Source: Candidatus Omnitrophota bacterium
GTDB lineage: Bacteria; Omnitrophota; Gorgyraeia; Gygaellales; Profunditerraquicolaceae
Reading direction: 5' to 3'
DNA: 64,000 nt
Assembly: GCA_030650425.1 (NCBI GenBank)
Contig: JAUSED010000009.1
Span: 32,904 to 96,903, forward strand
Shown here piece after piece: positions 18,717-36,306 of this stretch. The notes beneath the pieces were generated by a model. That model was not told the origin of the DNA and did not search any database. It was given only the letters and a program-made list of their open reading frames with translations. The translations under genes and the position numbers were made by a program. Every line of letters begins with the position of its first letter. Position 1 is the first letter of the stretch.

Positions 18717-18730
18717 ATTTTTCTAATGTA

Positions 18731-18823
18731 GGGGACACAAACTAGGGGACACTTTCCTTTTGAGGCTTTCATTAGAGCCCTGACGGAAAGTGTCCCCTAG
18801 TTGTGAGTTAGGAAAGTGTCCCC
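18731..18823. repeat. Cluster of GGGGACACTTTCC / GGAAAGTGTCCCC inverted-repeat elements (intergenic copy 1)
   Basis: A partial GGGGACAC sits at 18731. A full 13-bp inverted repeat pair at 18745-57 and 18785-97 has a 27-nt spacer. An extra right arm lies at 18811-23. The spacer tail AGAGCCCTGAC is shared with the copy at 28826. Confidence 0.8.
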
Positions 18824-18844
18824 TATCTTTGAATCCGATTGTGT

Positions 18845-18873
18845 TTGACTTTTGGCTCGAGGGATGTTAAGAT
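18845..18873 (+). promoter_or_regulatory. Putative promoter of gatCAB (TTGACT-17-TAAGAT)
   Basis: A -35/-10-like pair about 25 nt upstream of the GTG start of gatC. Confidence 0.3.
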
Positions 18874-18899
18874 AATTTTTTATAACTACAAGGAGCGCT

Positions 18900-19187
18900 G
18901 TGGGGATAGACAAAAAGACAGTTGAGGGTGTGGCACATCTGGCGCGCATTGAGCTGGAGCCAAAGGAGTTAGAGAAATTATCTCATCAATTAGAGCATAT
19001 ATTGGCTTTTATTGATAAATTAAGCGTTTTAAACACGGATAATGTCCCTCCCACAAGCCATATTCTTCCGCTAAATAATGTATTAAGGAAAGACGAAACT
19101 AAGCCCTCACTTTCTATTGAAAAGACCCTTGCCAACGCGCCTGCTAAGCAAGGAAATTTTTTTGTTGTACCCAAGGTGATTGAATAG
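18900..19187 (+). CDS. gatC: Asp/Glu-tRNA amidotransferase subunit C
   Basis: [31 protein letters not shown] is the GatC signature. It has a GTG start with an AGGAG RBS. Confidence 0.85.
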
Positions 19188-19189
19188 AA

Positions 19190-20644
19190 ATGGAACTTTA
19201 TAAATTAACTGCTCACGAACTCCTCGAAAAATTAAAGAATAAAGAAATAACCGCGGAAGAAATCTCCTCAAGTTTAGCTAAGAGAATTGAGGATGTGGAT
19301 GTTGAGGTTAAAGCATATGTGAGGACTCCAGAAAAATGGGGACAAAAAAGGGGACAGTCCCCAGAAAAAGGGGACAGTCCCCTTTTTTTCGAAACAAAAG
19401 GCATTCCTGTATCTATAAAAGATAATATCTGTACCGATGGTTATAGCACTGAATGCTGTTCAAAAATTCTCGAAGGTTTTAAGCCGCCCTATAATGCGAC
19501 GGTAATCAATAAAATAAACGAGGCTGGACATAGTTTTCTGGGTTTAAAGTGCAATATGGATGAATTCGCTTTTGGTTCATCCACCGAAAATTCCTGTTTT
19601 GGCCCGACGCGTAATCCTTGGAATTTAGAATCTGTTCCCGGCGGTTCTTCCGGAGGCTCAGCAGCGGCAGTGGCCGGGGATGAAGCAATTTGGGCCCTGG
19701 GTTCGGATACTGGCGGCTCTATCCGTCAACCTGCTTCTTTCTGCGGAGTGGTGGGATTAAAGCCGACCTATGGAAGGGTTTCGCGTTATGGTTTAATCGC
19801 TTTTGCCTCCAGCCTTGATCAAATCGGGCCGCTGACTAAAGATGCGCGGGACTCGGCGCTGCTAATGAATATAATTTCCGGCTTTGACCCGCTTGATTCC
19901 ACCTCGATCAATATTCCTGTTCCTGATTATACTAAGGATTTGATTAACGACGCCAAAGGTTTAAAGATCGGTATTCCCAAAGAATATTTTGTAGAGGGCC
20001 TTGATCCTGAAGTTAAATCAATAGTTGAAGAAGCGATTGATAAATTAAAGGGCTTGGGAGCGCAATTTAAAGAAGTTTCCCTGCCGCACACAGAATACGC
20101 TGTCCCAGTTTATTACATCATCGCTACTGCCGAAGCCAGTTCTAATTTAGCCCGTTTTGATGGCGTGCAATATGGTTTAAGGGCTAAGACGCAAGGGTTG
20201 ATTGATATGTATAAGAAAACGCGCCAACTCGGATTTGGCGACGAGGCTAAGCGCAGGATAATCTTAGGGACATTCGCGCTTTCACACGGCTATTACGACG
20301 CTTATTACCTGAGGGCATTAAAGGTACGCACGCTGATTAAACAGGATTTTGACAATGTATTTAAGGATTTTGATTGTATTGTTACGCCTACATCGCCTAC
20401 CGCGGCCTTTAAAATCGGTGACAAAGTAGATGATCCGCTTAAAATGTATTTATCGGATATCTACACCATCTCGGTAAATTTAGCCGGGATTCCGGCGATC
20501 TCCATTCCGTGCGGATTTACCAAAAAAGGATTACCGGTAGGCTTACAAATTTTAAGCAGGCATTTTAATGAAAGCGCGCTTTTTCGCTTAGCCTATACCT
20601 ACGAACAGAATACTGAGTGGCATAAAATGAAACCAAAATTATGA
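19190..20644 (+). CDS. gatA: Asp/Glu-tRNA amidotransferase subunit A
   Basis: Amidase signature [18 protein letters not shown] and [10 protein letters not shown]. It contains an in-frame palindromic repeat at 19337-19382. Confidence 0.9.
19337..19382. repeat. Tandem GGGGACA(A/G)... and GGGGACAGTCCCC palindromic units inside the gatA coding frame
   Basis: TGGGGACAAAAAAGGGGACAGTCCCCAGAAAAAGGGGACAGTCCCC. It encodes [15 protein letters not shown] in a variable N-terminal linker of GatA. Confidence 0.75.
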
Positions 20645-22077
20645 AATACGAACCGGTCATCGGATTAGAAGTGCATTTGCATTTAAATACTAAAACCAAG
20701 GCTTTTTGCGGCTGCTCTACGCAATTCGGCAGTGAACCCAATGCGCAAGTCTGTCCTGTATGCTTAGGTTTTCCCGGGTCACTCCCGGTTTATAACCAGA
20801 CTGCCCTGGATTATGCTATCAAAGTTGCCTTAGCCTTAAATTGCAAGGTTCAGGAACATACCAAGTTTGACCGGAAAAATTATTTTTATCCTGATTTGCC
20901 TAAAAATTACCAGATTTCACAATATGATTTGCCGCTTTCTATGCACGGGTTTCTGGATATCGAACTCGGCGGTCAAGAAAAACGCATTGGTATAACCCGG
21001 GTACATATGGAAGAGGACGCGGGAAAGCTCATTCATCAGGAAGATTGCAGCCTGGTAGATTTTAACCGCACCGGAATTCCGCTTTTAGAGATTGTCAGCG
21101 AACCGGATCTAAACTCTCCTGAGGAAGCTTATGAGTATTTATCCACCCTTAAGAGCGTCATTGAATACTTGGATGTCTCGGATTGCGATATGGAAAAAGG
21201 ATCGCTGCGCTGTGATGCCAATATATCCTTAAGGCCGGCAGGCTCAAAAACCTTAGGGGTAAAAACAGAGCTGAAGAACATGAATTCATTTAAGGGTGTA
21301 AAAGATGCCTTAGCTTTTGAGATAGGGCGTCAAAATAAATTATTGGAATCAGCAGAGACATTACTTCAAGAAACCCGGCTTTGGAATGCTAAATCTTCGG
21401 AAACACTTCCGATGCGCGTCAAAGAAGGAGCTAAGGATTACCGCTATTTTCCTGAGCCGGATTTACCCGCGCTTATAATCACGGAAAGTAAGATAGCGGA
21501 AATAAAAAATACGATTCCGGAATTACCTAAAGAAAAAATGAGACGTTTTATTAAAGATTATGGGCTGTCGGAATATGACGCGAAAGTATTAACCGCTTCC
21601 AAGTGGACAGCGCGATTCAGCGAAGAAACGATGCGTAAATTTAGCGCGGTTAATAAAAAACCGGTGGCGAATTGGATCATTGGGCCGTTAGCAGGCATAG
21701 CCGGAAATAAATCCTGTGAAATCTCCGCGCTGAGAATTTCGGCTGATCAGCTTGTGGATTTGATCGAATTAGTTGAGAAAAAACAGGTTATTTCAAACTT
21801 GACCGGCAAGGTTGTTTTGGAAGAGATGGCTAATACCGGTAAGCATCCCCAAAAAATAATCGAAGAAAAAAATTTGGCCCAGATTTCCGATTCAACCAGT
21901 TTGAATAGTGTTATTGCCGGGGTGATCAAGGAAAATCCCAAGTCTGTCGCGGATTATAAGACAGGAAAAGCGAATGCCCTGATGTTTCTGGTCGGACAGG
22001 CAATGCGTAAAAGCGCGGGAAAGGCCAACCCTAAAATGCTACAGACGTTATTAAAGGAGCGTTTGGATAGTGAATAA
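20641..22077 (+). CDS. gatB: Asp/Glu-tRNA amidotransferase subunit B
   Basis: [24 protein letters not shown] and a Zn-binding CPVC motif. Confidence 0.9.
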
Positions 22078-23269
22078 GAAAATTATCGCCTTATTAATGG
22101 TGATCATCGTGCTTTTAGCTTGTGCTACTTTGGCGATTTCCTTTGATAAGAAAAAGAGCAATGATTTGTACCGGCAGGTCGAACTTTTTTCGGATGTCTT
22201 GGCGGTTGTGGATACGGATTATGTGGATGAAGTAAAGCCAAAGGATCTGATTTATGGCGCTTTAAAAGGCATGCTCTCTTCCTTGGATCCGCACAGCCAG
22301 TTTATGGACGCGGATACTTACAATGAATTAAAATCGGATACCGAAGGGCAATTCGGCGGCTTAGGAATCGAGATCTCCTTGAAAGACGGGCTACTCACGA
22401 TCATTACGCCGATCGAGGATACTCCGGCTTGGCAGGCAGGGCTAAAAGCAGGAGACCGGATTGTGAAAGTTAATAATCAGTTAACCCGGGGAATAGACCT
22501 AAGCGAAGCGATGAAAAAGCTGCGCGGTAAACCGGGTGAAATAGTTAAGCTGACTATCTTGCGGGAGTCAGAGAAAAAGTTACTGGAGTTTTCGATTACC
22601 CGCGCAATCATCAAAATTAACGATATTAAAGAGGCGAAAGTATTGGAAGGAGGTATCGGTTATATCCGCATGTTGGAATTCAGGGATAACACTCCTAAGG
22701 ATTTTAATGCCGCGATTAAAAAGTTAGTTAAACTTAAAATGGACTCTCTGATATTGGATTTACGCAATAATCCGGGAGGAGTGCTGGAGAGCGCTTTAGA
22801 GATAACCGGAAAATTTATCCCCGAAGGGAAATTGATTGCTTATACTAAGGGCAGAAAAGAGAACCAAAATTTACAATTTAAGGCGCAAGCCAAGCATCCG
22901 ATGCTTAACTTGCCTATGGTGATATTAATCAATGAAGGGTCGGCTTCCGGAAGCGAGATTCTCGCCGGGGCATTGCAGGATTATAAACGAGCGGTAATTT
23001 TAGGGGAAAAATCTTTTGGTAAGGGCTCGGTGCAAACAGTTATACCTTTAAGCGACGGCTCGGCATTGAGATTGACGACCAGTAAATATTTTACTCCTTC
23101 GGGTAAAATTATCCATGGGAAAGGGGTTATCCCCGATCTAGTCGTAAGTAACGGGATTAAAAAAGAAAAAGATGAAGGGCCTTGGGAATACAAGTCGGAT
23201 TTACAGGTTATGGCGGCGGTCAATCTTATAAAGAAAGGGATTGCTTTGCCCCTTCGGGGCTCGCAATGA
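22070..23269 (+). CDS. ctpA: Carboxyl-terminal processing protease (S41) with a PDZ domain
   Basis: An N-terminal TM segment, a PDZ region (GLKAGDRIVKVN), and an S41 catalytic region GSASGSEIL...KGS. Confidence 0.85.
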   Translation: MNKKIIALLMVIIVLLACATLAISFDKKKSNDLYRQVELFSDVLAVVDTDYVDEVKPKDLIYGALKGMLSSLDPHSQFMDADTYNELKSDTEGQFGGLGIEISLKDGLLTIITPIEDTPAWQAGLKAGDRIVKVNNQLTRGIDLSEAMKKLRGKPGEIVKLTILRESEKKLLEFSITRAIIKINDIKEAKVLEGGIGYIRMLEFRDNTPKDFNAAIKKLVKLKMDSLILDLRNNPGGVLESALEITGKFIPEGKLIAYTKGRKENQNLQFKAQAKHPMLNLPMVILINEGSASGSEILAGALQDYKRAVILGEKSFGKGSVQTVIPLSDGSALRLTTSKYFTPSGKIIHGKGVIPDLVVSNGIKKEKDEGPWEYKSDLQVMAAVNLIKKGIALPLRGSQ

Positions 23270-23279
23270 CAGTTTTTTA

Positions 23280-24041
23280 ATGAAAAAACTTGCCACCATT
23301 ATTCTGATATTGGTTATTTTATTCGCACTAATCGCCTTTCTTACCAGAAAACCTCAGAAGGCAGTCAGCTTTAAGCCAGTGATCAAGGGAAGGATTGCTA
23401 TTGTCCTAGATGACTGGGGGTATAATTTAAATAATCTACGGAGTATAGAAGAAATAAAATATCCCCTTACCGCATCAATTTTACCTAATATTGCCTATAC
23501 CCGAAAAGTCGCTGAAGAATTACATTCGAGGGGTTTTGAAGTAATTTTACACCTGCCTATGGAGCCGGAAGAAAAGTTGAGCCTGGAAAAAAACACCATC
23601 AAAACCTCGATGGAGAAAACCCAAATTTTGAATATTCTGGATAGTGATTTGAGCAGCATTGCCTACGCTGACGGAGTATCAAATCATATGGGGTCTAAAG
23701 CGACAAGCGACTTAAAGACGATGGAAGTTATTTTTAAGGAATTAAAAAATCGGCATCTTTACTTTCTGGATAGTTTTGTAACCTCGAAGTCTGTCTGTTC
23801 GGATTTAGCGCGTAAAATTGGGCTGAGGTCATTTACGAGGGATGTATTTTTGGATAATCTGGAAGAGCGCGAGTATATCAAACAACAAATTTATAAACTT
23901 AAAGCTAAAGCAAGGGCAAAGGGATTTGCCATTGGGATAGGCCATGACCGTAAGGTTACCTTAGAGGTTTTAAGAGAGGTTATGCCGCAGATAGCCAAAG
24001 AAGGGTATAAATTTGTGTTTTTATCGGAGCTATCAAGATGA
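23280..24041 (+). CDS. Divergent polysaccharide deacetylase family protein (YibQ-like)
   Basis: A TM anchor followed by IAIVLDDWGYN and a polysaccharide deacetylase-like fold. The start is placed at the ATG at 23280, just after the ctpA stop. Confidence 0.6.
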   Translation: MKKLATIILILVILFALIAFLTRKPQKAVSFKPVIKGRIAIVLDDWGYNLNNLRSIEEIKYPLTASILPNIAYTRKVAEELHSRGFEVILHLPMEPEEKLSLEKNTIKTSMEKTQILNILDSDLSSIAYADGVSNHMGSKATSDLKTMEVIFKELKNRHLYFLDSFVTSKSVCSDLARKIGLRSFTRDVFLDNLEEREYIKQQIYKLKAKARAKGFAIGIGHDRKVTLEVLREVMPQIAKEGYKFVFLSELSR

Positions 24042-25027
24042 TTGTTCTAGGGCTTGAGACTTCCTGCGATGAGACCTCCGCGGCGGTGGTGAAAAACGGG
24101 AAGAAGATAATTTCTTGCGCGGTGGCCTCCAGCCTTGAATTCCATAAAAAATACGGAGGGGTAATTCCGGAGATTGCTTCGCGCGCTCAACTGGAAACAA
24201 TTACCGGAATCACGGATTGCGCGATACGGGAAGCGAAAATAAAATTAAGGGATATTAACTTGATTAGCGTAACCAGCGGCCCGGGGTTAATCGGTTCATT
24301 GTTAGTGGGCATTTCATTCGCCAAGGCCCTATCTTTAAGTTTAAATAAGCCATTATTGGGGATTAATCACGTCTATAGCCATTTTTACGCTAATTTCCTA
24401 AGCGGGGAAAAGATAAGATTACCATTTATGGCTTTAGTTGTTTCCGGCGGCCATACAAACTTATTTTTTGTCCGCGATTTTGATAAAATAGAGCTCCTCG
24501 GCCAGACTCAGGACGATGCCTGTGGAGAGGCCTTTGATAAAGTAGCTAAGATTCTAAATTTGGGTTACCCCGGGGGCCCAGCGATCGAGAAAATAGCCCT
24601 GCGCGGGAATCCCGATAAGATTAAATTTAATTGTTCCGGCACGAAGAATGAATTAGATTTTAGTTTTAGCGGAATTAAAACCGCCGTCTTGTATTATGTT
24701 AGAGATCGAAAGACAAAAGTCAGAAGACAGGATACTGCTGATCTTGCGGCGAGTTTTCAGGAAGCTGTCATTGATACGCTTGTGAGAAAGGCACTCTTAG
24801 CCTGCAAGTTAAAAAAAATAAACCGGTTGGTTATAGGTGGAGGGGTAGCGGCAAATAGCCGGTTAAGGGGTAAATTTAATCAAGCTGCCCGGAAATTTAA
24901 TTTAAACTGTTATTTCCCGCCAAGCTCTCTTTGTATGGATAACGCCGCGATGATCGCGGGCTTAGCATATCAACTATTTAAAAAAGGCCATTGCTCAGGC
25001 TTAGGCTTGAGCGCGGAATTAAACTAG
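24038..25027 (+). CDS. tsaD: tRNA N6-adenosine threonylcarbamoyltransferase
   Basis: LGLETSCDETSAAVV and a GGVAAN region match the Kae1/Gcp family. Confidence 0.9.
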   Translation: MIVLGLETSCDETSAAVVKNGKKIISCAVASSLEFHKKYGGVIPEIASRAQLETITGITDCAIREAKIKLRDINLISVTSGPGLIGSLLVGISFAKALSLSLNKPLLGINHVYSHFYANFLSGEKIRLPFMALVVSGGHTNLFFVRDFDKIELLGQTQDDACGEAFDKVAKILNLGYPGGPAIEKIALRGNPDKIKFNCSGTKNELDFSFSGIKTAVLYYVRDRKTKVRRQDTADLAASFQEAVIDTLVRKALLACKLKKINRLVIGGGVAANSRLRGKFNQAARKFNLNCYFPPSSLCMDNAAMIAGLAYQLFKKGHCSGLGLSAELN

Positions 25028-25047
25028 CCATTGACAAGGGGGTTAAA

Positions 25048-25497
25048 ATGCTTACAGACAGCCAAATTATTGTTCGTTTGGTACTAAGCGTAATTTTAAG
25101 CGGGTTGATTGGATTCGAAAGGCAACTGCACAAAAGGAATGCCGGGTTGCGCACGCATATTTTAGTTGCTTTGGGTTCTTGTCTTATAATGTTGACATCC
25201 ATCTATGTTTTTGATATATATAAAGATATAGCCAAGGCTGACCCGGCGCGGATTGCCGCGGGAGTAATCACCGGTATTGGGTTTTTAGGCGCGGGTACGA
25301 TTATTCGCGATAGAGAGGGAGTTAGAGGCCTTACTACCGCTGCCAGCCTTTGGGTTGTGGCAGGTATTGGTTTAGCTGCTGGATGCGGTTTTCTTAACGC
25401 GTCAGTTTACGCTACGGTTTTAGCTTTGATTGTCCTTTTCTTTTTAAGATACTTTGAGTCAATAGTTTTTAACGACGATAATGATAAGCAGCACTAA
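25048..25497 (+). CDS. MgtC/SapB family membrane protein
   Basis: VRLVLSVILSGLIGFERQ is the MgtC signature. The start is chosen at the ATG at 25048, which has an AAGGGGG RBS. Confidence 0.8.
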   Translation: MLTDSQIIVRLVLSVILSGLIGFERQLHKRNAGLRTHILVALGSCLIMLTSIYVFDIYKDIAKADPARIAAGVITGIGFLGAGTIIRDREGVRGLTTAASLWVVAGIGLAAGCGFLNASVYATVLALIVLFFLRYFESIVFNDDNDKQH

Positions 25498-25503
25498 ACA
25501 TTG

Positions 25504-25557
25504 ATACCGCACATAGTGCGGTATCAAACAAGCCATAAGCACCAGAGGTATGGCTTG
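25504..25557 (+). terminator. Two consecutive stem-loops after mgtC
   Basis: GATACCGCACATAGTGCGGTATC and CAAGCCATAAGCACCAGAGGTATGGCTTG. There is no strong U-tract, so the terminator call is tentative. Confidence 0.3.
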
Positions 25558-25573
25558 TTTGAGGAGGTGGGAT

Positions 25574-26077
25574 ATGGCTTTTAAGAAAAAGCTGGAAGAA
25601 AAGATTTTAGATGTCGATGCCTCCATGCAAGGGACATTAAGTTTTAAAGACGCGGTAAATTTACGGATTAACGGGAAATTTGAAGGCACTCTTGAAACTA
25701 AAGGGAATTTGACCATAGGCCCTACCGCGGTAGTAACCGCGGATATTAACGGTGATAATATTATTATCGGAGGCAGGGTCAGAGGGAGGATCACCGCCAG
25801 AGAGAGACTAACCATTTTACCTGCAGCTATGGTTGAGGGAGATATCTTTCCGGCTAAATTAAATATTGCTGAGGGCGCGATTTTAGAAGGCAGGTGCTGC
25901 ATGCTGCATGATTTTCTAAATGCCGAGGAGCTGGCCAGGTATCTGGAAGTTGATCTTAATTCTATCATGGAATGGGCAAATTCGGGTAAGGTCCCGGGCC
26001 ACAAAGAGGGCGATGCCTGGAAATTCGAGAGAAAGGCGATTGATTCTTGGGTAGGTTCGGGGAAGATCGATAAATAA
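25574..26077 (+). CDS. Bactofilin-domain protein fused to a C-terminal excisionase/MerR-type HTH
   Basis: Bactofilin beta-helix repeats (GNLTIGPTAVVTADINGDNIIIGGRVRGRITARERLTILPAAMVEGDI) are followed by LNAEELARYLEVDLNSIMEWANSGKVPGHKEGDAWKFERKAIDSW, an HTH_17-like domain. A GAGGAGG RBS precedes the start. Confidence 0.6.
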   Translation: MAFKKKLEEKILDVDASMQGTLSFKDAVNLRINGKFEGTLETKGNLTIGPTAVVTADINGDNIIIGGRVRGRITARERLTILPAAMVEGDIFPAKLNIAEGAILEGRCCMLHDFLNAEELARYLEVDLNSIMEWANSGKVPGHKEGDAWKFERKAIDSWVGSGKIDK

Positions 26078-26088
26078 AAAATTAAACT

Positions 26089-26397: not shown

Positions 26398-26408
26398 ATC
26401 CAGATACA

Positions 26409-27475: not shown

Positions 27476-27488
27476 GGAGAATATAACC

Positions 27489-28817
27489 ATGGCTTTGTCA
27501 GGTTTGGATATTTATAAGTTGCTTCCTAAAACAAATTGCCGCGAATGCGGTTTTGCTACTTGTTTAGCTTTCGCTATGCAACTGGCCAAGAAAGCTGTTG
27601 GTATTGATAAATGTCCGCATTTGACCTCTGAAGTAAAGGGAAAGTTAGAAGCGCAATCCCAGCCGCCGATAAAATTAATTACCATTGGCTCAGGAGAAAC
27701 GCGATTAGAGATCGGGAATGAAAATGTGATGTTCAGGCATGAAGAAAAATTTTTCCGGCCTGCCGGAATCGGTTTTATAGTTGAGGATAATTCTACGGAC
27801 GCCGAAATTAAAACCAAGATAGAAAAAATCAATGAACTAAAATTTGAGCGCGTCGGCCAGCGTTTAGAGGTTAATCTCGTAGCCATAAGGCAGAATAAGG
27901 ATGCCAAAAGATTTATTGACGTTGTTCAGCTTGTATCAGTAAACACTCCTTTAAGCCTGGTCTTGATGAGCCCTGATGCGCAAGCCTTAAAAGGGGCTTT
28001 GGAGATTTTAAAAGGCAGGAACCCTTTAATTTATCATGCTACCAAAGAAAATTTAACCGCGCTTACGCAGCTAGCCAAGGATTACAAGGTACCCTTAGTT
28101 GCTCAAGGTGACGATCTTGAGAAAGTCAGCGAATTAACAGCTGAGCTTTCGAAACAAGGTGTAAATGATTTAATTATAGAGACTGGTAAAAAGCCGATAT
28201 CCGAAAAGGTATGGGATCTGACTCAAATTAGAAGGCTTGCTTTAAAAAAATCTAACCGCGGCCTTGGCTATCCTTCTTTAGTTGTGGTTGAGCAGAATGA
28301 TGTTTACGCGGAGGCGCAAGAAGCGGCAACCTATATTACAAAATACGCCGGGATTGTTTTGCTTAAAGGAATCGAGTCTTGGGCTGTTTTGTCGCTTTTG
28401 ACCTTGCGGCAAAATATTTATACTGATCCGCAAAAACCGCTTCAGATCGAACCTAAGCTTTATCCGATAGGGCAGGTAAACGATAAGTCTCCGGTTTTAG
28501 TCACGACTAATTTTTCACTTTCATATTATACTGTTTTGGGGGAAGTGGAGGCAAGTAAGATTCCCGCGTATATTATCAGTATAGATACAGAAGGAATGTC
28601 AGTATTGACTGCTTGGGCTGCGGAAAAATTTACCCCTCAAAAGATTAACGAATCGATAAACAAATTCGGGGTAAAGGACGCGATTTCGCATAAGCGCTTG
28701 GTTATTCCCGGGTATGTCGCGGTAATGAGCGGAGAGTTGCAGGACGAATCAGGATTTGAAATTATCGTCGGGCCGAAAGAAGCGGCAGGAATACCATCAT
28801 TTTTGAAGAATTTATAA
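27489..28817 (+). CDS. acsC: Corrinoid iron-sulfur protein large subunit (acetyl-CoA decarbonylase/synthase gamma)
   Basis: The N-terminal [4Fe-4S] motif LPKTNCRECGFATCLAFAMQLA, TIM-barrel and corrinoid-binding regions. The length of 442 aa is typical. Confidence 0.85.
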   Translation: MALSGLDIYKLLPKTNCRECGFATCLAFAMQLAKKAVGIDKCPHLTSEVKGKLEAQSQPPIKLITIGSGETRLEIGNENVMFRHEEKFFRPAGIGFIVEDNSTDAEIKTKIEKINELKFERVGQRLEVNLVAIRQNKDAKRFIDVVQLVSVNTPLSLVLMSPDAQALKGALEILKGRNPLIYHATKENLTALTQLAKDYKVPLVAQGDDLEKVSELTAELSKQGVNDLIIETGKKPISEKVWDLTQIRRLALKKSNRGLGYPSLVVVEQNDVYAEAQEAATYITKYAGIVLLKGIESWAVLSLLTLRQNIYTDPQKPLQIEPKLYPIGQVNDKSPVLVTTNFSLSYYTVLGEVEASKIPAYIISIDTEGMSVLTAWAAEKFTPQKINESINKFGVKDAISHKRLVIPGYVAVMSGELQDESGFEIIVGPKEAAGIPSFLKNL

Positions 28818-28825
28818 CTACGCTA

Positions 28826-28877
28826 GGGGACACTTTCCTTTAGCAGCTTAGTAAGAGCCCTGACGGAAAGTGTCCCC
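28826..28877. repeat. GGGGACACTTTCC-26 nt-GGAAAGTGTCCCC inverted-repeat element (intergenic copy 2)
   Basis: It has the same 13-bp arms and the same AGAGCCCTGAC spacer tail as the copy at 18745-18797. It lies between acsC and the RACo gene. Confidence 0.8.
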
Positions 28878-28901
28878 TGATAGTGCCCTGTAGTGTGAGA
28901 T

Positions 28902-30806
28902 ATGAACAAATTTAAAGTTACCTTTCAACCGAATAATAAAACCGTCGAGGTACCCAAAGATACGACGGTTCTTTCGGCAGCGATCTCTTGCGGAGTGTCT
29001 ATAAAGTCGGATTGCGGAGGGGACGGGGTCTGCGGCAGGTGTAAGGTTGTGGTAAAGAAGGGTGAGGTTTTAACTCAGCCCACAGGAATGCTTAATGATG
29101 AAGAGAGAAAACGTAATATATACCTAGCTTGTATTACTACTATACATAGCGATTTGGAAGTAGAGGTTCTACCTGAATCAAGAATTGATCCAAGTTCCAG
29201 GCTTAAAGGTATTTATTCGAAATCCGAAGAGATAGAATCGAAAGAAGCAGTTTCAAGCGATAAAGTATTCAAACACTCGCCACTATCCACAAAATTATAT
29301 CTTGAGTTACCCCCGCCAAATTTGAATGATACAGCCAGCGACTTAGACAGGCTTTTTCGCGCTATTCGTAAAGCGCAGGACCTGCCGGTTATGCAAACAG
29401 GTTTAAGCAATATCCGGCAGCTCGGAGAATTATTACGCGGCTGCGAATGGAAAGTGACCGTTACTTTAGGCAAGAGAAATGATACGGTAGAGGTTGTCTT
29501 GGTTGAACCGCAGGATACCTCGAACAAAAATTTCGGGGTATGTTTTGACATCGGCACTACCACTATCTCCGGCCAGCTTGTGGATTTAAATTCCAAAAAG
29601 ATATTGGGGACTAAGGCGACCTATAATCAGCAAGCGAGCTTTGGTTCGGATGTAATCACGCGCATAATCTACGCGCGGCAGAACGAAGGAATCGAAAAAC
29701 TGCACAGCGCGGTAACCGGGACGATGAACCTGATGATTAAAGAGCTTACCGTTGAACATAAAGTGAATTTAAATGACCTGACTTGCGTTGTTTGTACCGG
29801 AAATACGACAATGATCCATTTATTGCTTCTGGTGGACCCTACTTATATAAGGCGTGAGCCGTATGTACCGACGGCGAATTTCCTGCCGGTTTTAAGGGCT
29901 TCCGAAGCAGGGATCATCATTAATCCTCGCGGGCTTTTAGCATGCGTACCGGGTGTATCAAGTTATGTCGGAGGAGACACTACCGCCGGGGTTCTTTCCA
30001 GCGGCCTCTACAATGAAACTGATCTGTGCATTCTGATTGATATAGGCACTAATGGAGAAATTGCCCTCGGGAATAAGGATTTTTTGGTTGCCTGCGCGGC
30101 TTCCGCCGGCCCGGCGTTTGAAGGAAGCGGAGTAAGCTGCGGTATGCGGGCCTCAAACGGCGCAATCCAAAAGGTTAAGATAAGCCCCAAAGACTTCTCA
30201 GTAACCTGTTCGACGATCGGTGAAGCTAAGCCTCGCGGCATATGCGGTTCCGGATATATCGATTTAATCGCCCAGATGCTTGAAACAGGCGTAATAGATA
30301 GAGGCGGGAAAATTAAATTGGAAAACCATAAACGCGTGCGTGATTCCGAATCCGGGAAAGAATTTGTGCTGGTTTTTAAAGAAGACTCGGCTTCTTCGAA
30401 AGATATAGTTATTAACGAAGCGGATATAGAAAACTTAAAACGCGCCAAGGCCGCGATTTATTCGGCTACCGCTGTTTTAGTCAAGCATATGAATTTTATG
30501 CTTGACGATGTTAAGAAGATCTTTATCGCCGGCGGATTTGGCACATCTTTGGATATAGAGAGCGCGATAAAGATAGGGCTGCTTCCCGATCTTGTAAGAA
30601 GCAAGTTTGTGTTTATCGGTAATAGCGCTTTAGCGGGTGCCCGTCAGATGCTTCTATCGGCAGAGGCAACAAAGTTGGCGGAGGAGATAGCGCGTAAGAT
30701 CACCTACTTTGAATTATCCGTTGATTCCGGATATATGGATGAATATATGGCGGCTTTGTTTTTCCCGCATACGGATTTAAATAGATTCAGGCCGCGGGAT
30801 AAATAA
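28902..30806 (+). CDS. Reductive activator of corrinoid iron-sulfur protein (RACo): 2Fe-2S ferredoxin plus ASKHA ATPase
   Basis: An N-terminal plant-type ferredoxin (CGGDGVCGRCKV) and a C-terminal ASKHA-fold domain (DIGTTTISGQL, DIGTNGEI). The length is 634 aa. Confidence 0.8.
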   Translation: MNKFKVTFQPNNKTVEVPKDTTVLSAAISCGVSIKSDCGGDGVCGRCKVVVKKGEVLTQPTGMLNDEERKRNIYLACITTIHSDLEVEVLPESRIDPSSRLKGIYSKSEEIESKEAVSSDKVFKHSPLSTKLYLELPPPNLNDTASDLDRLFRAIRKAQDLPVMQTGLSNIRQLGELLRGCEWKVTVTLGKRNDTVEVVLVEPQDTSNKNFGVCFDIGTTTISGQLVDLNSKKILGTKATYNQQASFGSDVITRIIYARQNEGIEKLHSAVTGTMNLMIKELTVEHKVNLNDLTCVVCTGNTTMIHLLLLVDPTYIRREPYVPTANFLPVLRASEAGIIINPRGLLACVPGVSSYVGGDTTAGVLSSGLYNETDLCILIDIGTNGEIALGNKDFLVACAASAGPAFEGSGVSCGMRASNGAIQKVKISPKDFSVTCSTIGEAKPRGICGSGYIDLIAQMLETGVIDRGGKIKLENHKRVRDSESGKEFVLVFKEDSASSKDIVINEADIENLKRAKAAIYSATAVLVKHMNFMLDDVKKIFIAGGFGTSLDIESAIKIGLLPDLVRSKFVFIGNSALAGARQMLLSAEATKLAEEIARKITYFELSVDSGYMDEYMAALFFPHTDLNRFRPRDK

Positions 30807-30807
30807 T

Positions 30808-31560
30808 ATGGGGTGGGTTATAGCGATGGCGGGTAAGGGTGGAACAGGTAAGACTACTGTCGCAGCCCTGCTTGTGCGTATAATTAAAGAAAATAATCTT
30901 GGCTCGATTCTAGCGGTTGATGCAGACCCAAATAGTAATCTTGGCGAATTATTGGGTTTGGAGGCAAAAGAAAGCATCGGCTGTATACTCGATGATATAG
31001 CCAGTAATCCGCAAATCGTTCCCGTTAATATGGGTAAGGACGCTTTTATCGAATACCGCGTTCAGCGCTCGATAATCGAGGCGGATGGCTTTGATCTTTT
31101 GACGATGGGCAGGCCTGAGGGCCCGGGCTGCTATTGTTATGTAAATAACTCCCTGCGTAATGTTATGGATAGGCTGATCAATGACTATGATTTTGTGGTC
31201 ATTGATAATGAAGCGGGGTTAGAACATTTATCCCGGCGCACTACCAGACGGGTGGATACTTTATTGGTTATTTCGGATGCCTCTATTATAGGCCTAAAAG
31301 CAGCGAAAAGAATCGTTGAGTTGACCAAAGAGCTGAAAATTAAAACTAAAAAAGAACTCTTAGTGGTTAACCGAAGCAACCCAAATATTGAACCGGATAA
31401 AATTAAAGGTTTAAACTTGGATTACTTGGGCCGCTTACCCATAGATTCTGAGGTTGAAAGTTTAAGTAAGTTGGGGGCATCGTTGGTGAATTTAAATAAA
31501 GATAGCGCGATGCTAAGTACTTTACGAAAACTAGGAGAAAAGATATGGCTTTGCAATTAA
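30808..31560 (+). CDS. cooC: CooC/AcsF-type nickel-insertion ATPase (MinD family)
   Basis: Deviant Walker A AMAGKGGTGKTT and the CooC-specific CYCYV motif. Confidence 0.8.
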   Translation: MGWVIAMAGKGGTGKTTVAALLVRIIKENNLGSILAVDADPNSNLGELLGLEAKESIGCILDDIASNPQIVPVNMGKDAFIEYRVQRSIIEADGFDLLTMGRPEGPGCYCYVNNSLRNVMDRLINDYDFVVIDNEAGLEHLSRRTTRRVDTLLVISDASIIGLKAAKRIVELTKELKIKTKKELLVVNRSNPNIEPDKIKGLNLDYLGRLPIDSEVESLSKLGASLVNLNKDSAMLSTLRKLGEKIWLCN

Positions 31561-32486
31561 TCACGGAAAAGTGGTCAGGCGAAGTTTCGGTAGTCACTAT
31601 CGGCGCGGCTAATCAGGAGGGTGGAACACGTTCCCACGCGGTAAAGATCGGTGGGGAGAAATCGCTTCCTTACTTGTTCAAAGAAGGAAGTCTTCCGAAT
31701 AAGCCTCAGATTGCCTTTGAAATTTTAGATATCATGCCTAGTGATTGGCCTAATGCAGTTAGCGCTCCCTATGGTAAAACTTTAAATGATCCTTTGGAAT
31801 GGGCGGATAAATGTGTGCGGGATTATCAAGCCGGTATTTTATGCGTTAGATTACTTGGATCTCATCCGGATTTCGGAAATAAATCTCCTGAAGAAGAAGC
31901 GCAGCTGATTAAGAAATTATTAAAAAAAGTGAGCGTACCTTTAGTTATTTTAGGAAGCGGAGATGACGCTAAAGACAATCTTGTTTTACCGGCTATATCC
32001 GAAGCAGCCAAAGGTGAGCGTTGTCTAATCGGTTCAGCGGTACAGGATAATTATAAAACTATTGTGGCCAGCGTTTTAGCCGACGGGCATAATATCATTG
32101 CCGAATCCCCGATAGATATTAATATCGCCAAGCAGTTGAATATTTTGATTTCGGATATGGGGCTGGCTTTGGAACGTATTGTGATGAATCCTACCATTGG
32201 GGCTTTAGGTTACGGGTTGGAATACGCCTATTCGATTATGGAGCGTTCCCGCCTTGCCGCGCTGGCAGGAGATAAGACTATGGCTTCTCCATTTATCTGT
32301 TTTGTGGGACAGGAGGCCTGGAGGGCTAAAGAAGCTAAGGCGGATGATTTGCCTGATCAGGGGATAATCTGGGAAACACTGACCGCGACGGCCTTAATTC
32401 AGGCAGGCGCTGATTTATTAGTTATGCGGCATCCTAAGGCGGTTGAAAAAGTAAAAGAATATATAGATAATTTATTCCGGAGTTAA
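31545..32486 (+). CDS. acsD: Corrinoid iron-sulfur protein small subunit (acetyl-CoA decarbonylase/synthase delta)
   Basis: It is about 310 aa with a TIM-barrel small-subunit pattern. It is adjacent to acsC and acsE. Confidence 0.75.
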   Translation: MALQLITEKWSGEVSVVTIGAANQEGGTRSHAVKIGGEKSLPYLFKEGSLPNKPQIAFEILDIMPSDWPNAVSAPYGKTLNDPLEWADKCVRDYQAGILCVRLLGSHPDFGNKSPEEEAQLIKKLLKKVSVPLVILGSGDDAKDNLVLPAISEAAKGERCLIGSAVQDNYKTIVASVLADGHNIIAESPIDINIAKQLNILISDMGLALERIVMNPTIGALGYGLEYAYSIMERSRLAALAGDKTMASPFICFVGQEAWRAKEAKADDLPDQGIIWETLTATALIQAGADLLVMRHPKAVEKVKEYIDNLFRS

Positions 32487-32489
32487 AAT

Positions 32490-33278
32490 ATGTTGATCAT
32501 CGGTGAGTTGATTAATGGGATGTACGCTAATATCGGTAAAGCGATTAAGGAGCGCGCTAAAGCCGAAATCCAGAAATGCGCCTTGGAGCAGATAGAAAGC
32601 GGAGCAGACGCTTTAGATATTAATTGCGGCCCGGCATCAAAGCAACCGCTTATCGATATGCCGTGGTTGGTTGAAAGCGTGCAAGAGGTGACGGATAAAC
32701 CGTTGTGCCTGGATTCAAGCAAGCCGCAGGTTATTGAAGTTGGCCTTGAGGCGGCAAGGAATAAAACGATTATTAATTCGGTTACAGCGGACCCGGAAAA
32801 GTTAGATGTGATTATTCCGTTAGCCAAGAAATATAATTCCCAGCTTATCGGGATTACCATCAGTAAAAAAGGTATCCCGCAGAATAAAGACCAGCGCCTC
32901 GAATTAGCCGCGGCGATTGTGGCCAGCTGCGCGGAAAAAGATTTTCCTGTTGACAACTTGTTCCTTGATCCGATAGTCCTTCCGGTGAATGTCGCTCAGG
33001 CGCAGCTAAAAGATATTTTAGAGTCAATCCGCGATTTTAAGATAATCTCCGAGCCTTCCCCTAAAACGACTTTAGGATTGAGCAATGTTTCGCAAGGCAC
33101 AAACGTCAGGAGCCTGATTAACCGGACCTTTCTTACAATGGCTATCGCCTATGGCTTGGATTCGGCTATATTAGACCCTAAAGATAAAGAGTTGATGGAT
33201 GCCTTGATTACCGCCGAGCTTATTTTGAATAAACACATTTATTGCGATTCGTATTTAGACGCTTATAAGAAAAAGTGA
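32490..33278 (+). CDS. acsE: Methyltetrahydrofolate:corrinoid/iron-sulfur protein methyltransferase
   Basis: A pterin-binding (DHPS-like) barrel with GADALDINCGP. The 262 aa length matches AcsE. Confidence 0.8.
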   Translation: MLIIGELINGMYANIGKAIKERAKAEIQKCALEQIESGADALDINCGPASKQPLIDMPWLVESVQEVTDKPLCLDSSKPQVIEVGLEAARNKTIINSVTADPEKLDVIIPLAKKYNSQLIGITISKKGIPQNKDQRLELAAAIVASCAEKDFPVDNLFLDPIVLPVNVAQAQLKDILESIRDFKIISEPSPKTTLGLSNVSQGTNVRSLINRTFLTMAIAYGLDSAILDPKDKELMDALITAELILNKHIYCDSYLDAYKKK

Positions 33279-33293
33279 ATTTGAGTTAGTTAT

Positions 33294-33370
33294 GGCGGCG
33301 TAACTCAGCCTGATAGAGTAGTCGGCTCATACCCGATTTGTCGCTGGTTTAAATCCAGCCGCCGCCACCA
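33294..33370 (+). tRNA. tRNA-Met or tRNA-Ile2 (anticodon CAT) with an encoded CCA; atypical D and T loops
   Basis: Acceptor stem GGCGGCG/CGCCGCC, anticodon loop CTCATAC. The D-loop lacks GG18-19 and the T-loop is TTTAAAT with no C56. The G1-C72 pair argues against an initiator tRNA. Confidence 0.7.
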
Positions 33371-33409
33371 AATTTTTTATATAAAATTTTAAACTAATCA
33401 GGATCCCGA

Positions 33410-34399
33410 ATGAATAAGAAAGGCGAGGCTAAAGAAGCCGGGTATGGTTTGGTTCTGCAGGAGCTGCAGGAAAACCCCTACAGGAAATTTAATCTCGCCT
33501 TTTCTTTAATGGTTATTTTGCCTTTCCTTGTATTTTTGTACATATTAGTAAGTAAGTTATTTACTTTAAACATACTTATCGGCAATATCGGCATCGTATT
33601 GCTTATCGCGCTTTTTATTTCAATTTGCGGATTTTTAATCGGCGTCAGAATTTTAAAGAATATTTTAAAAAAACTCATCGCGCTTGCCGCGCAAGCAAAG
33701 CATAGTGATCAGTTGAAATCGACTTTTGTGGCTACGGTATCGCACGAACTAAAAAACCCTCTTACTTCTATTAAAACTAATATTTATAATATCTCCGCGG
33801 GGTTTACCGGAGAGGTTAATCTAGAGCAAAAGAATATCCTTGGGCTTTGTCAGGATACAATTGATCGTATGAGCAGGCTGGTAAACGATTTGCTGGATTT
33901 ACATAAGATCGAAGCCGGAATGACCGATGTAAATAGAAAGCCTTGCAATGTCATAGAATTATCAGAGAAGCAGATTAGGGAGTTAGGGGTTGTAGCTGGG
34001 GCAAGGAATATCCAGATCGTTAAGGAATTTTCAGATACAAAGCTAACGGTATGGGCTGATGAAGACAAATTGGCGCGGGTAATTAATAACCTTTTGAGCA
34101 ATGCGATAAAATTTACTCCCGAAGCAGGAATTGTAACTTTAAAGGTTTATCCCGCTGATAATTTCGCCAGAATCGAATGTATAGACACCGGAACAGGAAT
34201 AGAAGCGGATAACCTGGAAAAGATTTTTAGTAAATTCGAGCGGTTAAATTCCGTAAAAGAAGGCACTGGATTGGGTTTGGCTATCTCCAAGGATATCGCG
34301 GAAATGCATAGGGGTAAAATTCTCGTAGAAAGCGAAATCGGGAAAGGAAGTAAGTTTATTCTGCTTTTACCCCGCGACCTTAGAGGAAGGGGCAGATAA
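33410..34399 (+). CDS. Sensor histidine kinase (2 TM, HisKA + HATPase_c)
   Basis: H-box VSHELKNPLTSI, and N/G1/G2 boxes (NLLSNAIKFT, DTGTGI, GTGLGLAI). Confidence 0.8.
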   Translation: MNKKGEAKEAGYGLVLQELQENPYRKFNLAFSLMVILPFLVFLYILVSKLFTLNILIGNIGIVLLIALFISICGFLIGVRILKNILKKLIALAAQAKHSDQLKSTFVATVSHELKNPLTSIKTNIYNISAGFTGEVNLEQKNILGLCQDTIDRMSRLVNDLLDLHKIEAGMTDVNRKPCNVIELSEKQIRELGVVAGARNIQIVKEFSDTKLTVWADEDKLARVINNLLSNAIKFTPEAGIVTLKVYPADNFARIECIDTGTGIEADNLEKIFSKFERLNSVKEGTGLGLAISKDIAEMHRGKILVESEIGKGSKFILLLPRDLRGRGR

Positions 34400-34401
34400 A
34401 T

Positions 34402-34785
34402 ATGACGAATGAAAGAAACGCTAAAAAAATCTTAATCGTGGAGGATGGGAAAGAATTGTTGTTAAGCTTGTCAATTTTGCTAAAATCCCAGGGTTATTTG
34501 ACTATTGGCGCGCCTGACGCCCTCTTCGGTATAAGCCTTGCTCACAAAGAAAGGCCGGATTTGATCATTCTGGATTTGGGCTTGCCCGCGGGAGGAGGAT
34601 TTTATGTTTTAGAGAGCATTAACGATTCTATTGAAACTAATGATATACCAGTCATGATTTTGACCGGACAGCAGGGAATAGAACTGGAAGAAAAAGCCCG
34701 GAAGATGGGGGTAGCGGCGTATCTGCATAAGCCTTTTGAGCCTAAAGAGCTGCTCAGCCGGGTTAAGGAAATTTTGGATAGATAG
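34402..34785 (+). CDS. Single-domain response regulator (CheY-like receiver)
   Basis: ILIVEDGKE...DLIILDLGLP and a KPF motif, with no output domain. Confidence 0.8.
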   Translation: MTNERNAKKILIVEDGKELLLSLSILLKSQGYLTIGAPDALFGISLAHKERPDLIILDLGLPAGGGFYVLESINDSIETNDIPVMILTGQQGIELEEKARKMGVAAYLHKPFEPKELLSRVKEILDR

Positions 34786-34804
34786 GGAAAAAATAGAACC
34801 GTCC

Positions 34805-36064
34805 CTATTGTTTTTTGGTAAGGGTGTAGAGTATCTGCGATGTTGAAATAAAGATAACTGCCTCTATGGTTATAGTCGCCGCCGCGGCGCCTAAAAAAGA
34901 GAAATAGTGAATAAAAATAAAGATTAAGGGTAATCCCAGGAAAGCCGCGAAGACGTGTATCCTTGAATAGATATCCGGCCTGCCGCAGACCAAGAGGAAT
35001 TGCACCTTAAAGGCATTGGCGCTGATGAAGAATAAAGAGAGAAGGAGCAGTCTTAAGCTTATGACGACTTCGGGAAATTCTGTTCCGCAGGCTAGCTTTA
35101 CGATCTGCGGAGAAATAAAGAAGATAAACGGAATAATTAATAAGTAAGCCAGAGTGGTAGAATGTTGGACTTTATGCATTAAATTCAGCGCCTGTTTCTT
35201 ACTTCTGGAAAAAATCCGGCTTAAGCGCGGGAAAATTGCCTGTGAAAGCGCGGCAAGCGGAAATGTCTGAATAATACCGGTAATTCTTTCGGCGATGGAG
35301 TAATATCCGGTGATTATATTATTGGTAAGCAGTCCAACGGCGAAAATGCGCGTTGTCGTGTAGGTATTTATAGCGACGATGGAGATAAATACTTCCCAAC
35401 CGGTTTTTAATTCCTGCCTTATGCCGCTATAGCTTGGGAAAAGAAATTCAAGATCAAATTCTTTAAAGGCTACATATAGCCCTAAAAGCCCGGTGATTAT
35501 AAAAAACAAAGAATTCAATAGAGGAACAAGCAGGTAATCGCTAGCGCTCTTTACAAAGATAAAAATAGAAATCGCGTAGATTACTCCACCAATTATGTTG
35601 ATGATGGTTATGTAGCGCATTTTTTCCGTCCCCTGAAATAGCCAGACCGGAAAAAGGGTATTACCGATCACCGCGCCAAAGCTGAATAAATAGAGAAGCC
35701 AGTCAGTCTTGAATTTTGGGACGAGATTAATTAGCAGCAATAAAATCAGATAACTTAAAAACGCGAGAATAAACTTTACGCTCATCACCGTTGAGAATAT
35801 CGTGCTGGCCTGTTTATATTCATTGCATAAAGATATCTTTCTGGTCGCGGTCAGGCTAAACCCATAGTCTGTAATAATCATAAAGTATTGGATGAGCGCC
35901 TGAGCAAAGGCGATTAAGCCGAATTTCTCCGGGCCGATGATCCTGATTAAGTATGGTAACACCAGAAGCGGCAGGAGGTAGTTGATGCATTGAAGGGTAG
36001 AAAGCGAGGCAAAATTCTCTAAAACAACTTTCTTGTCTTTCGCGCTTATAGCTTTATGCTGCAT
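34805..36064 (-). CDS. Polysaccharide biosynthesis protein / Wzx-type flippase (MOP superfamily)
   Basis: It is about 12-TM. The N-terminal FASLSTLQCINYLLPLLVLPYLIRIIGPEKFG is typical of O-antigen and polysaccharide flippases. Confidence 0.7.
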   Translation of the reverse strand: MQHKAISAKDKKVVLENFASLSTLQCINYLLPLLVLPYLIRIIGPEKFGLIAFAQALIQYFMIITDYGFSLTATRKISLCNEYKQASTIFSTVMSVKFILAFLSYLILLLLINLVPKFKTDWLLYLFSFGAVIGNTLFPVWLFQGTEKMRYITIINIIGGVIYAISIFIFVKSASDYLLVPLLNSLFFIITGLLGLYVAFKEFDLEFLFPSYSGIRQELKTGWEVFISIVAINTYTTTRIFAVGLLTNNIITGYYSIAERITGIIQTFPLAALSQAIFPRLSRIFSRSKKQALNLMHKVQHSTTLAYLLIIPFIFFISPQIVKLACGTEFPEVVISLRLLLLSLFFISANAFKVQFLLVCGRPDIYSRIHVFAAFLGLPLIFIFIHYFSFLGAAAATITIEAVIFISTSQILYTLTKKQ

Positions 36065-36119
36065 AAGATTAATTTACACTTCGGGAAGCTAAAAGTCAAA
36101 CATAATAAAAGATGCGCTC

Positions 36120-36166
36120 AGGGGACACTTTCCTACGCGCGTTTACTATCTGTTGGAAAGTGTCCC
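36120..36166. repeat. GGGGACACTTTCC-21 nt-GGAAAGTGTCCCC inverted-repeat element (intergenic copy 3)
   Basis: It has the same 13-bp arms as the copies at 18745 and 28826. It sits in the divergent region between the flippase and tilS. A further GATTTTCC...GGAAAATC inverted repeat follows. Confidence 0.8.
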
Positions 36167-36306
36167 CTGCTAGGGAAAAAACAGATTTTCCTCGCAGGGG
36201 AAAATCAAGCGGTGCTCACTCGAATCAAGCCAAGCCCCCCCCTAAGCCGTAATAAGCTTATAATGTAATCATTGAAAAGCAGTCTAGTTATGCTAATATA
36301 AAAAGT

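Follow-up and report, generated by a model that had tools for sequence, protein, structure and literature searches.

Repetitive extragenic palindromes (REPs), with their BIME and REPIN arrangements and the REP-associated tyrosine transposases (RAYTs) of E. coli, Pseudomonas and Stenotrophomonas, are short dispersed hairpins that lie mostly outside genes and at gene 3' ends, occur as inverted doublets and clusters, and come and go between close relatives. The binding, cutting and rejoining of hairpins in single-stranded DNA by Y1 enzymes have been established for the IS200/IS605 insertion sequences and for TnpA_REP (PMC6006769, PMC8266576). The RAYT-like 'TIRYT' genes are flanked by inverted repeats with the common motif GGGGWSAS, and some of these repeats make up dispersed families in dimers or clusters (Di Nocera et al. 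2013, PMC3733652). For subclass 2.1 of the TnpA_Y1 enzymes the motif GGGG[AT][CG]A[CG] has been given, and the protein motif Y---NP marks class 2, the RAYT-like class (Quentin et al. 2018, PMC6006769). Here we analysed a stretch of 64,000 nucleotides from a Candidatus Omnitrophota bacterium (contig JAUSED010000009.1, positions 32,904 to 96,903; hereafter the window), in which three intergenic hairpins are built from one 13-nt arm, GGGGACACTTTCC. The three hairpins are quite probably non-autonomous REP/REPIN-like DNA elements that are mobilised in trans by a RAYT-like enzyme.

The window contains seven exact copies of the 13-mer GGGGACACTTTCC, at 18745 (+), 18785 (-), 18811 (-), 28826 (+), 28865 (-), 36121 (+) and 36155 (-). 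In 100 dinucleotide-preserving shuffles, occurrences with up to two mismatches averaged 1.06, and none of the 100 reached seven; the 9-mer AGGGGACAC is present eight times against 0.13 expected. The arms are arranged as follows:

18730..18824, no strand assigned: copy 1, a composite nested hairpin of 95 nt with three full arms and one partial arm
28826..28877, no strand assigned: copy 2, a simple hairpin whose 13-nt arms enclose a 26-nt loop
36121..36167, no strand assigned: copy 3, a simple hairpin whose 13-nt arms (15 bp counting CA/TG) enclose a 21-nt loop

Single hairpins are 47-53 nt long. Copy 1 consists, from left to right, of a partial outer left arm AGGGGACAC (18730-18738), a spacer AAACTA, an inner arm (18745-18757), a 27-nt loop, the opposing inner arm (18785-18797), a 13-nt spacer and a full outer right arm (18811-18823). 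An earlier sequence-only reading of this DNA had pointed out the three intergenic loci with 13-bp inverted arms, and the seven exact arms, which no shuffle matched, bear this out, with copy 3 lying one base away from the 36120-36166 that had been claimed. Its observation that two copies have a spacer tail in common also holds, as the loop tail AGAGCCCTGAC is found in copies 1 and 2 (family D13: 32 nt, 91% identical); the loop of copy 3 is unrelated in sequence to both. The structure prediction that it had called for gave strong RNA hairpins for all three copies, with folding energies from -29.6 to -57.6 kcal/mol, and the DNA folds ranged from -17.5 to -30.3 kcal/mol (z -5.5 to -8.2 versus shuffles; -4.3 to -8.2 over the DNA and RNA folds together). 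Copy 1 reached -30.3 kcal/mol as DNA (z -8.2) and -57.6 kcal/mol as RNA, and copy 2 reached -35.3 kcal/mol as RNA (z -6.5); taken as a whole, the fold z-scores extend from -4.3 to -11. In a search of the whole window with Rfam 15 at the gathering threshold, no family matched the hairpins, and at an E-value threshold copy 1 and 12 loci of the family returned just sub-threshold generic hairpins resembling miRNA precursors.

Comparison of the window with two syntenic relatives (L096 and L097), in which AcsC is 82-84% identical and the gene order is the same, revealed that all three hairpins are missing at the corresponding loci, while the flanking promoter and coding blocks align. This pattern indicates that the hairpins are insertions, not conserved operators. 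Upstream of gatC in L097, both sides align with the window (..TTTGTCCACAAATTT.. and ..GATTGTG.TTGACTTTT..) and a segment of ~100 nt that includes copy 1 is missing. The distance from the acsC stop codon to the RACo ATG is 5-9 nt in L096 and L097 compared with 84 nt in the window. This junction is empty in L096, L097 and L098 and contains other inserts in L095, where the contig ends within another repeat, and in L099 and L100. In the latter two, the acsC/RACo spacer measures 459 nt (L099 2011-2469; the same at L100 6425-6883) and includes a GC-rich segment of 115 nt closed by degenerate family arms (GGGGACACTTTGA ... GAAAAGTGTCCAC), which folds at -81 kcal/mol (z -4.6) and gave no Rfam match. 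In the spacer between the flippase gene and tilS, copy 3 is missing in L096, and degenerate arm-like remnants are present in L097 and L099. Such gain, decay and turnover at the same sites are unlike the behaviour of a conserved regulatory site. A second palindromic repeat (..CGTCTGGCTTGTCTTGTTTCNCGCAGGGACACTGG..CCCTGCTTAGAAACAAGCCAAGCC) was also observed in these relatives, at L095 10077-10126 (acsC/RACo) and at L097 19830-19920 (flippase/tilS spacer), and the window retains its tail AAGCCAAGCC at 36226-36235.

To place the hairpins in a wider context, we scanned one genome per species (GTDB) and, separately, metagenomes for the exact inverted repeat. Ninety-four further loci with exact arms were obtained, 22 from the GTDB species genomes and 72 from metagenomes, on contigs with GC contents of 36-72%. 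The genomes concerned are four Omnitrophota metagenome-assembled genomes (MAGs) or single-cell genomes, a Planctomycetia MAG, a Gemmataceae MAG and a Myxococcales MAG. The density of dispersed copies is three intergenic hairpins in the 64 kb of the window and at least 15 loci, on 12 contigs, in the fragmentary Omnitrophota MAG STB_56. A search of viral contigs for the hairpin gave 0 matches, and the arm GGGGACACTTTCC, taken as a text string, is absent from the literature searched. Alignment of 182 arms indicated that only W-G-GGGACACTTTCC is conserved (W at -2, G at -1), symmetrically on both sides. The loops are 9-43 nt long, mostly 23-25 nt, and are related within a genome or metagenome and different between them. 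In 33% of the hairpins the stem runs at least 3 bp past the arm through unrelated complementary bases, compared with 7% for mismatched flank pairs, which argues for a hairpin rather than a protein-binding site on duplex DNA. Nested arrays of the form arm-N12/13-arm-loop-arm'-N12/13-arm' are frequent, GC-rich contigs included, with up to 3+4 arms (L012); copy 1 is such an array.

The gene context of the family points to gene ends. Among 51 scorable hairpins, the flanking genes are co-directional in 40, convergent in 7 and divergent in 3-4, with a median spacing of ~20 nt past the upstream stop codon and ~50 nt ahead of the next start codon; across the family, divergent intergenic regions are thus the rare location and gene 3' ends the common one. 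All-against-all clustering of 1550 open reading frames (ORFs) from the loci in search of a recurrent neighbour gene returned only the ABC ATPase and AMP-binding families, and both were rejected as linked genes because abundant families of this kind recur by chance. The count and distribution check proposed by the sequence-only reading therefore comes, in other genomes and metagenomes, to about 100 loci that are mostly intergenic, with loops of 9-43 nt and no recurrent neighbour; the family is dispersed across many genomes and is not confined to the window at a fixed distance from promoters. In the Planctomycetia MAG, a CTTATGATAATATGCTAA block follows both hairpins (L004 6098-6120 and L007 3890-3912), so that the repeat unit there exceeds the hairpin and includes a -10-like GATAAT.

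A motif scan for HUH/Y proteins over all collected locus DNA (655 kb) revealed a single one, a protein of 161 aa encoded at L080 334-825 (-). It matches the Pfam family Y1_Tnp (E = 1.7e-14) and scores 75.2 bits, below the cut-off of 80, against the NCBIfam model for REP-associated tyrosine transposases (REP_Tyr_transpos). The protein contains the motifs NHIH, WQ and YAEHNP, the last of which is the class-2 Y---NP. Its sole relative in the PDB is E. coli TnpA_REP (4ER8), a weak match (E = 0.2) whose alignment spans the HuH and Y motifs. The gene is preceded, at a distance of 170 nt, by a perfect hairpin of the family and is followed 20 nt downstream by GGAAAGTGTACTTTCC; this gene-proximal hairpin and copy 1 of the window have the partial-arm prefix AGGGGACA[CT]AAA(C)TAGGGGACACTTTCC in common. 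At E <= 1e-10 we found 697 homologues, nearly all of 159-168 aa, and the named organisms among the best 120 of the 697 are all Omnitrophota. Five further homologues with retrievable DNA have family arms on both flanks in a conserved layout, with ACAGACGCTTTCC-N10-GGGAAACTGYCCCC-N10-GGAAAGTGTCMY upstream and GACAGTTTCC-N10-AGACACTTTCC-cgattga-GGAAAACGTCT downstream. The motif GAC[AG][CG]TTTCC occurs one to four times per locus within 260 nt of the gene at six of six independent loci and scarcely elsewhere in them, against a chance expectation of ~0.004 per locus. In two unrelated contigs (L107 3563-6486 and the P0147 contigs), the RAYT-like gene adjoins a large RHS/YD-repeat toxin gene.

Comparison with the described systems showed where the family agrees with each of them and where it departs. 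With REP/BIME/REPIN and RAYT systems it shares short dispersed hairpins that are mostly extragenic and at gene 3' ends, inverted doublets and clusters, copies that come and go between close relatives and, in the related Omnitrophota, a class-2 Y1 HUH gene (Y---NP) flanked by the repeats in a REPtron-like arrangement. It differs in that the 182-arm logo contains no unpaired GT[AG]G or CGTC foot; GTAG begins some loops in STB_56, yet it lies inside the hairpin. The unit here is a non-palindromic arm of 13-14 nt that pairs only with its inverted partner, the loops of 9-43 nt contrast with the mostly 2-5 nt of REPs, the arrays are nested (arm-N12/13-arm...arm'-N12/13-arm') and not alternating, the arm spans several phyla, and the protein falls under the NCBIfam RAYT cut-off (75.2 versus 80). 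The TIRYT/TIRtron repeats (PMC3733652; subclass 2.1, PMC6006769) resemble the family in that both GGGGACAC and the variant arm GGGGACAG fit GGGG[AT][CG]A[CG], the comparison being one of motifs. Some TIRYT repeats are likewise moderately abundant dispersed families in dimers or clusters, and they occur in Planctomycetes-Verrucomicrobia-Chlamydiae (PVC) and other non-proteobacterial phyla. The subclass 2.1 protein, in contrast, has ~238 aa with a C-terminal domain resembling a helix-turn-helix (HTH), whereas the Omnitrophota protein has 161 aa (homologues 159-168) and consists of Y1_Tnp only. The IS200/IS605 elements and the gene-less palindrome-associated transposable elements (PATEs) are similar in having hairpins to the left and right of the gene for a Y1 HUH enzyme, hairpin-only derivatives and an expected mobility through single-stranded DNA. 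They are dissimilar in that the Omnitrophota motif is Y---NP (class 2) and not Y---Q, no tnpB partner is present, and the dispersed copies are single symmetric hairpins instead of pairs of left and right ends. The lack of a GT[AG]G foot, of the C-terminal HTH and 238-aa length, and the long loops place the family outside every named REP family. As its behaviour is that of REP/REPIN elements, we file it as of the REP/RAYT kind, with a DNA motif that appears closest to the TIRYT repeats.

In the mechanism that we propose, the element would consist of two inverted arms of 13-14 nt (W-GGGGACACTTTCC) around a variable loop, and the arms would pair into a hairpin on single-stranded DNA. A RAYT-like class-2 Y1 HUH tyrosine transposase of ~161 aa, whose gene would lie elsewhere in the genome and is itself flanked by arms of the same family, would recognise this hairpin, cut and rejoin it, and place copies at new intergenic positions. 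Copies landing beside or inside existing ones would give rise to nested arm arrays; the nested arrays and extended stems do suggest, speculatively, insertion beside or into existing hairpins. The three window copies would have arrived after the split from relatives with ~82-86% identical AcsC, and selection would have left copies where they are tolerated, with copies 1 and 3 separating back-to-back promoters and copy 2 in the gap from acsC to RACo. Seen directly are the repeat and its potential to form a hairpin, its presence or absence at orthologous sites, its dispersal and the occurrence of family arms at RAYT-like genes. We infer the mobilisation of the hairpins by a RAYT-like enzyme from the reactions established for IS200/IS605 and TnpA_REP; that the window's genome encodes this enzyme, and any effect on gene expression, are likewise deduced.

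Several observations weigh against mobilisation by such an enzyme. A probable candidate for the cognate RAYT that the sequence-only reading proposed to search for is present in related Omnitrophota (L080 and the five loci flanked by arms), and no Y1 gene is found in the 64-kb window; of nine NCBI homologues checked, none has an accession in the block of the window's MAG. No Y1 gene was seen in the scanned hairpin loci of Planctomycetota and Myxococcota or in the GC-rich ones, and a shared enzyme therefore does not yet explain the identity of the arms across phyla. At five of the six RAYT-like loci the flanking arms (GGAAAGTGTCCCT, GGAAACTGTCCCC, ACAGACACTTTCC) deviate from the exact dispersed arm, and the foot expected of a REP is missing, as described above. 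The empty-site alignments define neither a target-site duplication nor a cleavage site. The gene calls behind the context counts are crude, with 25 hairpins overlapping a called ORF, mostly through over-extended starts.

A bolder version of the proposal, which we put forward tentatively and think unlikely to hold, is that the hairpins represent a distinct REPIN type. A minimal 161-aa class-2 Y1 enzyme would recognise its substrate by the sequence of the 13-bp stem instead of a 5' guide tetranucleotide, repeat and enzyme would spread together by horizontal transfer among Omnitrophota, Planctomycetota and Myxococcota, insertion would preferentially target hairpins, including the element's own copies, and the loop would be flipped by the same cleavage chemistry. 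If true, a REPIN type moving with its enzyme would account for identical arms in contigs of 36-72% GC, and hairpin-targeted insertion would give both the nested arrays and the stems that run into unrelated flanks.

Among other explanations, the one in which the hairpins are functional RNA elements, that is, non-mobile intrinsic or bidirectional terminators or stabilisers of mRNA 3' ends, draws on the location of the family ~20 nt past stop codons in mainly co-directional or convergent gaps, on a T-run at 26% of the outward flanks, on a GC-rich subfamily flanked by GAAAATG...CATTTTC and on the very high RNA stability. It also has an example in L094 (198-307), where a family hairpin followed by TTTTTTT forms the terminator that closes a leader with a sub-threshold match to the PyrR-binding site (46.9 bits, cut-off 54). 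A terminator, however, needs a stem and not one fixed 13-nt sequence that is the same in genomes with GC contents of 36-72%. The three window copies do not score as terminators, and no U-tract was found at them; two of the three are upstream of the -35 boxes on either side, and the sites are missing in close relatives. We therefore judge this explanation clearly improbable for the family as a whole. REPs are known to act as terminators in some cases; some copies of the present family probably do so as well, and the L094 hairpin is possibly a repeat co-opted as an attenuator terminator. A terminator role may well be a secondary exaptation of some copies, which is compatible with a mobile element. 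A second explanation, in which a conserved DNA-binding regulator or nucleoid protein would bind the arms as operators, set in inverted and direct repeats, fits the strictly conserved 13-mers, the occurrence of inverted pairs together with direct arm arrays of ~26-bp period, and the position of two window copies in promoter regions. The half-site spacing, on the other hand, varies from 9 to 43 nt, the arms are missing from the orthologous promoter regions of syntenic relatives, and most copies lie downstream of genes. Neither a shared regulon nor a recurrent regulator gene was found, and stem extension (33% against 7% in controls) indicates a hairpin and not a duplex site, which makes operators highly improbable. 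The preference of the sequence-only reading for a mobile hairpin of REP or miniature inverted-repeat transposable element (MITE) type over a dimeric operator is in this respect upheld by the empty sites in relatives, the dispersal, the variable loops and the arms at RAYT-like genes.

It is very unlikely that the hairpins are MITEs descended from an insertion sequence of DDE type, in which case the arms would be the terminal inverted repeats and TA a possible target. The arms do behave like such repeats, A...T or TA...TA marks the ends of many copies, and the double arms on each side resemble inverted repeat-direct repeat (IR-DR) ends. But TA...TA is itself palindromic and indistinguishable from stem extension, and the empty sites show no direct duplication of the target. 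In ~650 kb of loci, neither a DDE transposase nor an arm pair enclosing a gene other than the Y1 gene was found, and the only arm-associated transposase is of the HUH Y1 type. The remaining possibility, that the loop is a programmed segment inverted between the arms as a small switch, arises from cases in which a loop or inner hairpin is inverted relative to identical or orthologous flanks. Comparison of L031/L045 with L087 gave a loop identity of 0.77 in direct and 0.90 in inverted orientation, and that of L044/L091 with L078 gave 0.3-0.4 and 0.7-0.8, respectively; the composite L089 and L025/L057, as well as copies in STB_56, are likewise inverted. L089 and L025 were considered as orthologous loci with an inverted loop and rejected as such, since their outer flanks differ; they are two insertions of one composite element with the inner hairpin flipped. 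Loops of 9-43 nt are far below the size of known recombinase-inverted segments, contain no promoter and have no associated recombinase gene. Where inverted repeats are perfect, loops are flipped passively through hairpin or cruciform intermediates or by template switching; minute inversions of hairpin loops are known from chloroplast DNA, as is template switching at quasipalindromes. We take loop inversion to be a passive consequence of the perfect inverted repeats, and a programmed switch to be extremely improbable.

MDO8662593.1, from a Candidatus Omnitrophota MAG, matches the AcsC of the window at 100% identity. The gene context claimed by the sequence-only reading (gatC; acsC/RACo; flippase/tilS) stands, with Pfam matches for AcsC/CdhD, the polysaccharide flippase and TilS and with the identity of gatC and RACo following from synteny with annotated relatives. 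Copies 1 and 3 lie between divergent genes and are flanked by back-to-back promoter-like sites, whereas copy 2 lies inside the acs operon, with the acsC stop codon 8 nt before it and the RACo start codon 24 nt after it. The promoter-like sites are:

18686..18713, minus strand: TGGACA-16-TAAAAT, for the 1082-aa gene; -35 hexamer 17 nt from copy 1, block kept in L097
18845..18873, plus strand: TTGACT-17-TAAGAT with TG, for gatCAB; -35 hexamer 21 nt downstream of copy 1, block kept in L097 and L095
36071..36099, minus strand: for the flippase gene; copy 3 begins 21 nt upstream of the -35 hexamer, block kept in L096, L097 and L099
36272..36299, plus strand: for tilS; ~104 nt downstream of copy 3, block kept in relatives

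If these predicted promoters are the ones in use, copies 1 and 3 are probably not transcribed. Since both copies are upstream of the two flanking -35 boxes, an effect on mRNA stability is plausible for copy 2 only. Of the earlier suggestion that two copies in divergent promoter regions could affect transcription or mRNA stability, the location of copies 1 and 3 stands, and an effect on transcript stability is improbable at these two. For the host, copy 2 alone is likely to matter, as it places an RNA hairpin of -35 kcal/mol between genes that almost abut in relatives. It could act as a barrier at the mRNA 3' end, a partial terminator or a decoupler of translation, these expression effects being deduced from its position and fold. 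The 1082-aa ORF (15468-18716, minus strand) has no Pfam match and adjoins gatC also in L097, where it encodes 1069 aa, likewise with no Pfam match.

Possibly related palindromes are found within coding sequence in the window:

19338..19382, plus strand: gatA in-frame element GGGGACA-aaaaa-GGGGACAGTCCCC-agaaaaa-GGGGACAGTCCCC; the local GatA segment is 11-13 aa longer than in two relatives
56936..57703, plus strand: valS in-frame palindromes GGGAC[AT]GTCCC at 56949, 57329, 57345, 57674 and 57690

The valS elements lie at 56936-56960, 57324-57358 and 57669-57703, with 35-nt palindromes at 57324 and 57669, and all seven GGGAC[AT]GTCCC 11-mers of the window lie in gatA and valS. These elements share only the GGGGACA core with the intergenic arms, and both sets fit GGGG[AT][CG]A[CG]; arms of the GGGACAGTT type flank RAYT-like genes. 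A single family with intergenic and coding subtypes had been suggested earlier. The shared core agrees with this, and judging from the motifs a relationship between the GGGGACAGTCCCC elements and the intergenic hairpins is plausible. The GGGGACAGTCCCC elements, as palindromes in frame within housekeeping genes (gatA, valS), resemble the Rickettsia palindromic elements and the intragenic REPs of Opitutus terrae, unlike the three intergenic hairpins, which are outside coding sequence. The valS gene is the 925-aa ORF at 55464-58241, and the 927-aa ORF at 12594-15377 (plus strand) encodes a protein containing tetratricopeptide repeats (TPRs), not an aminoacyl-tRNA synthetase.

Omnitrophota are an uncultured phylum with small genomes. 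In the literature searched, no paper joins Omnitrophota with RAYT or REPIN; the element is of an ordinary kind, and its description in Omnitrophota is, as far as that literature goes, the first. The results suggest that Omnitrophota carry an active REP/RAYT-type repeat system, with mobilisation by the enzyme being the part deduced. The hairpins would account for contig breaks and variable intergenic lengths in Omnitrophota MAGs, and they would mark recent insertions usable in strain typing. Copy 2 parts the Wood-Ljungdahl genes acsC and RACo, which nearly abut in relatives, and their relative expression may change. The arm, identical across phyla, makes a compact model for substrate recognition by RAYT-like enzymes that does not involve a GTAG foot.

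Apart from the hairpins, the window contains at 43291-43577 a tRNA-Tyr(GUA)-like gene that is apparently split in its anticodon loop by a group I intron (gcagaCTGTA / intron / AAtctgc). The intron matches Rfam RF00028 at 43333-43524 with 89.9 bits, and ARAGORN calls only the flanking tRNA-Thr and tRNA-Gly.

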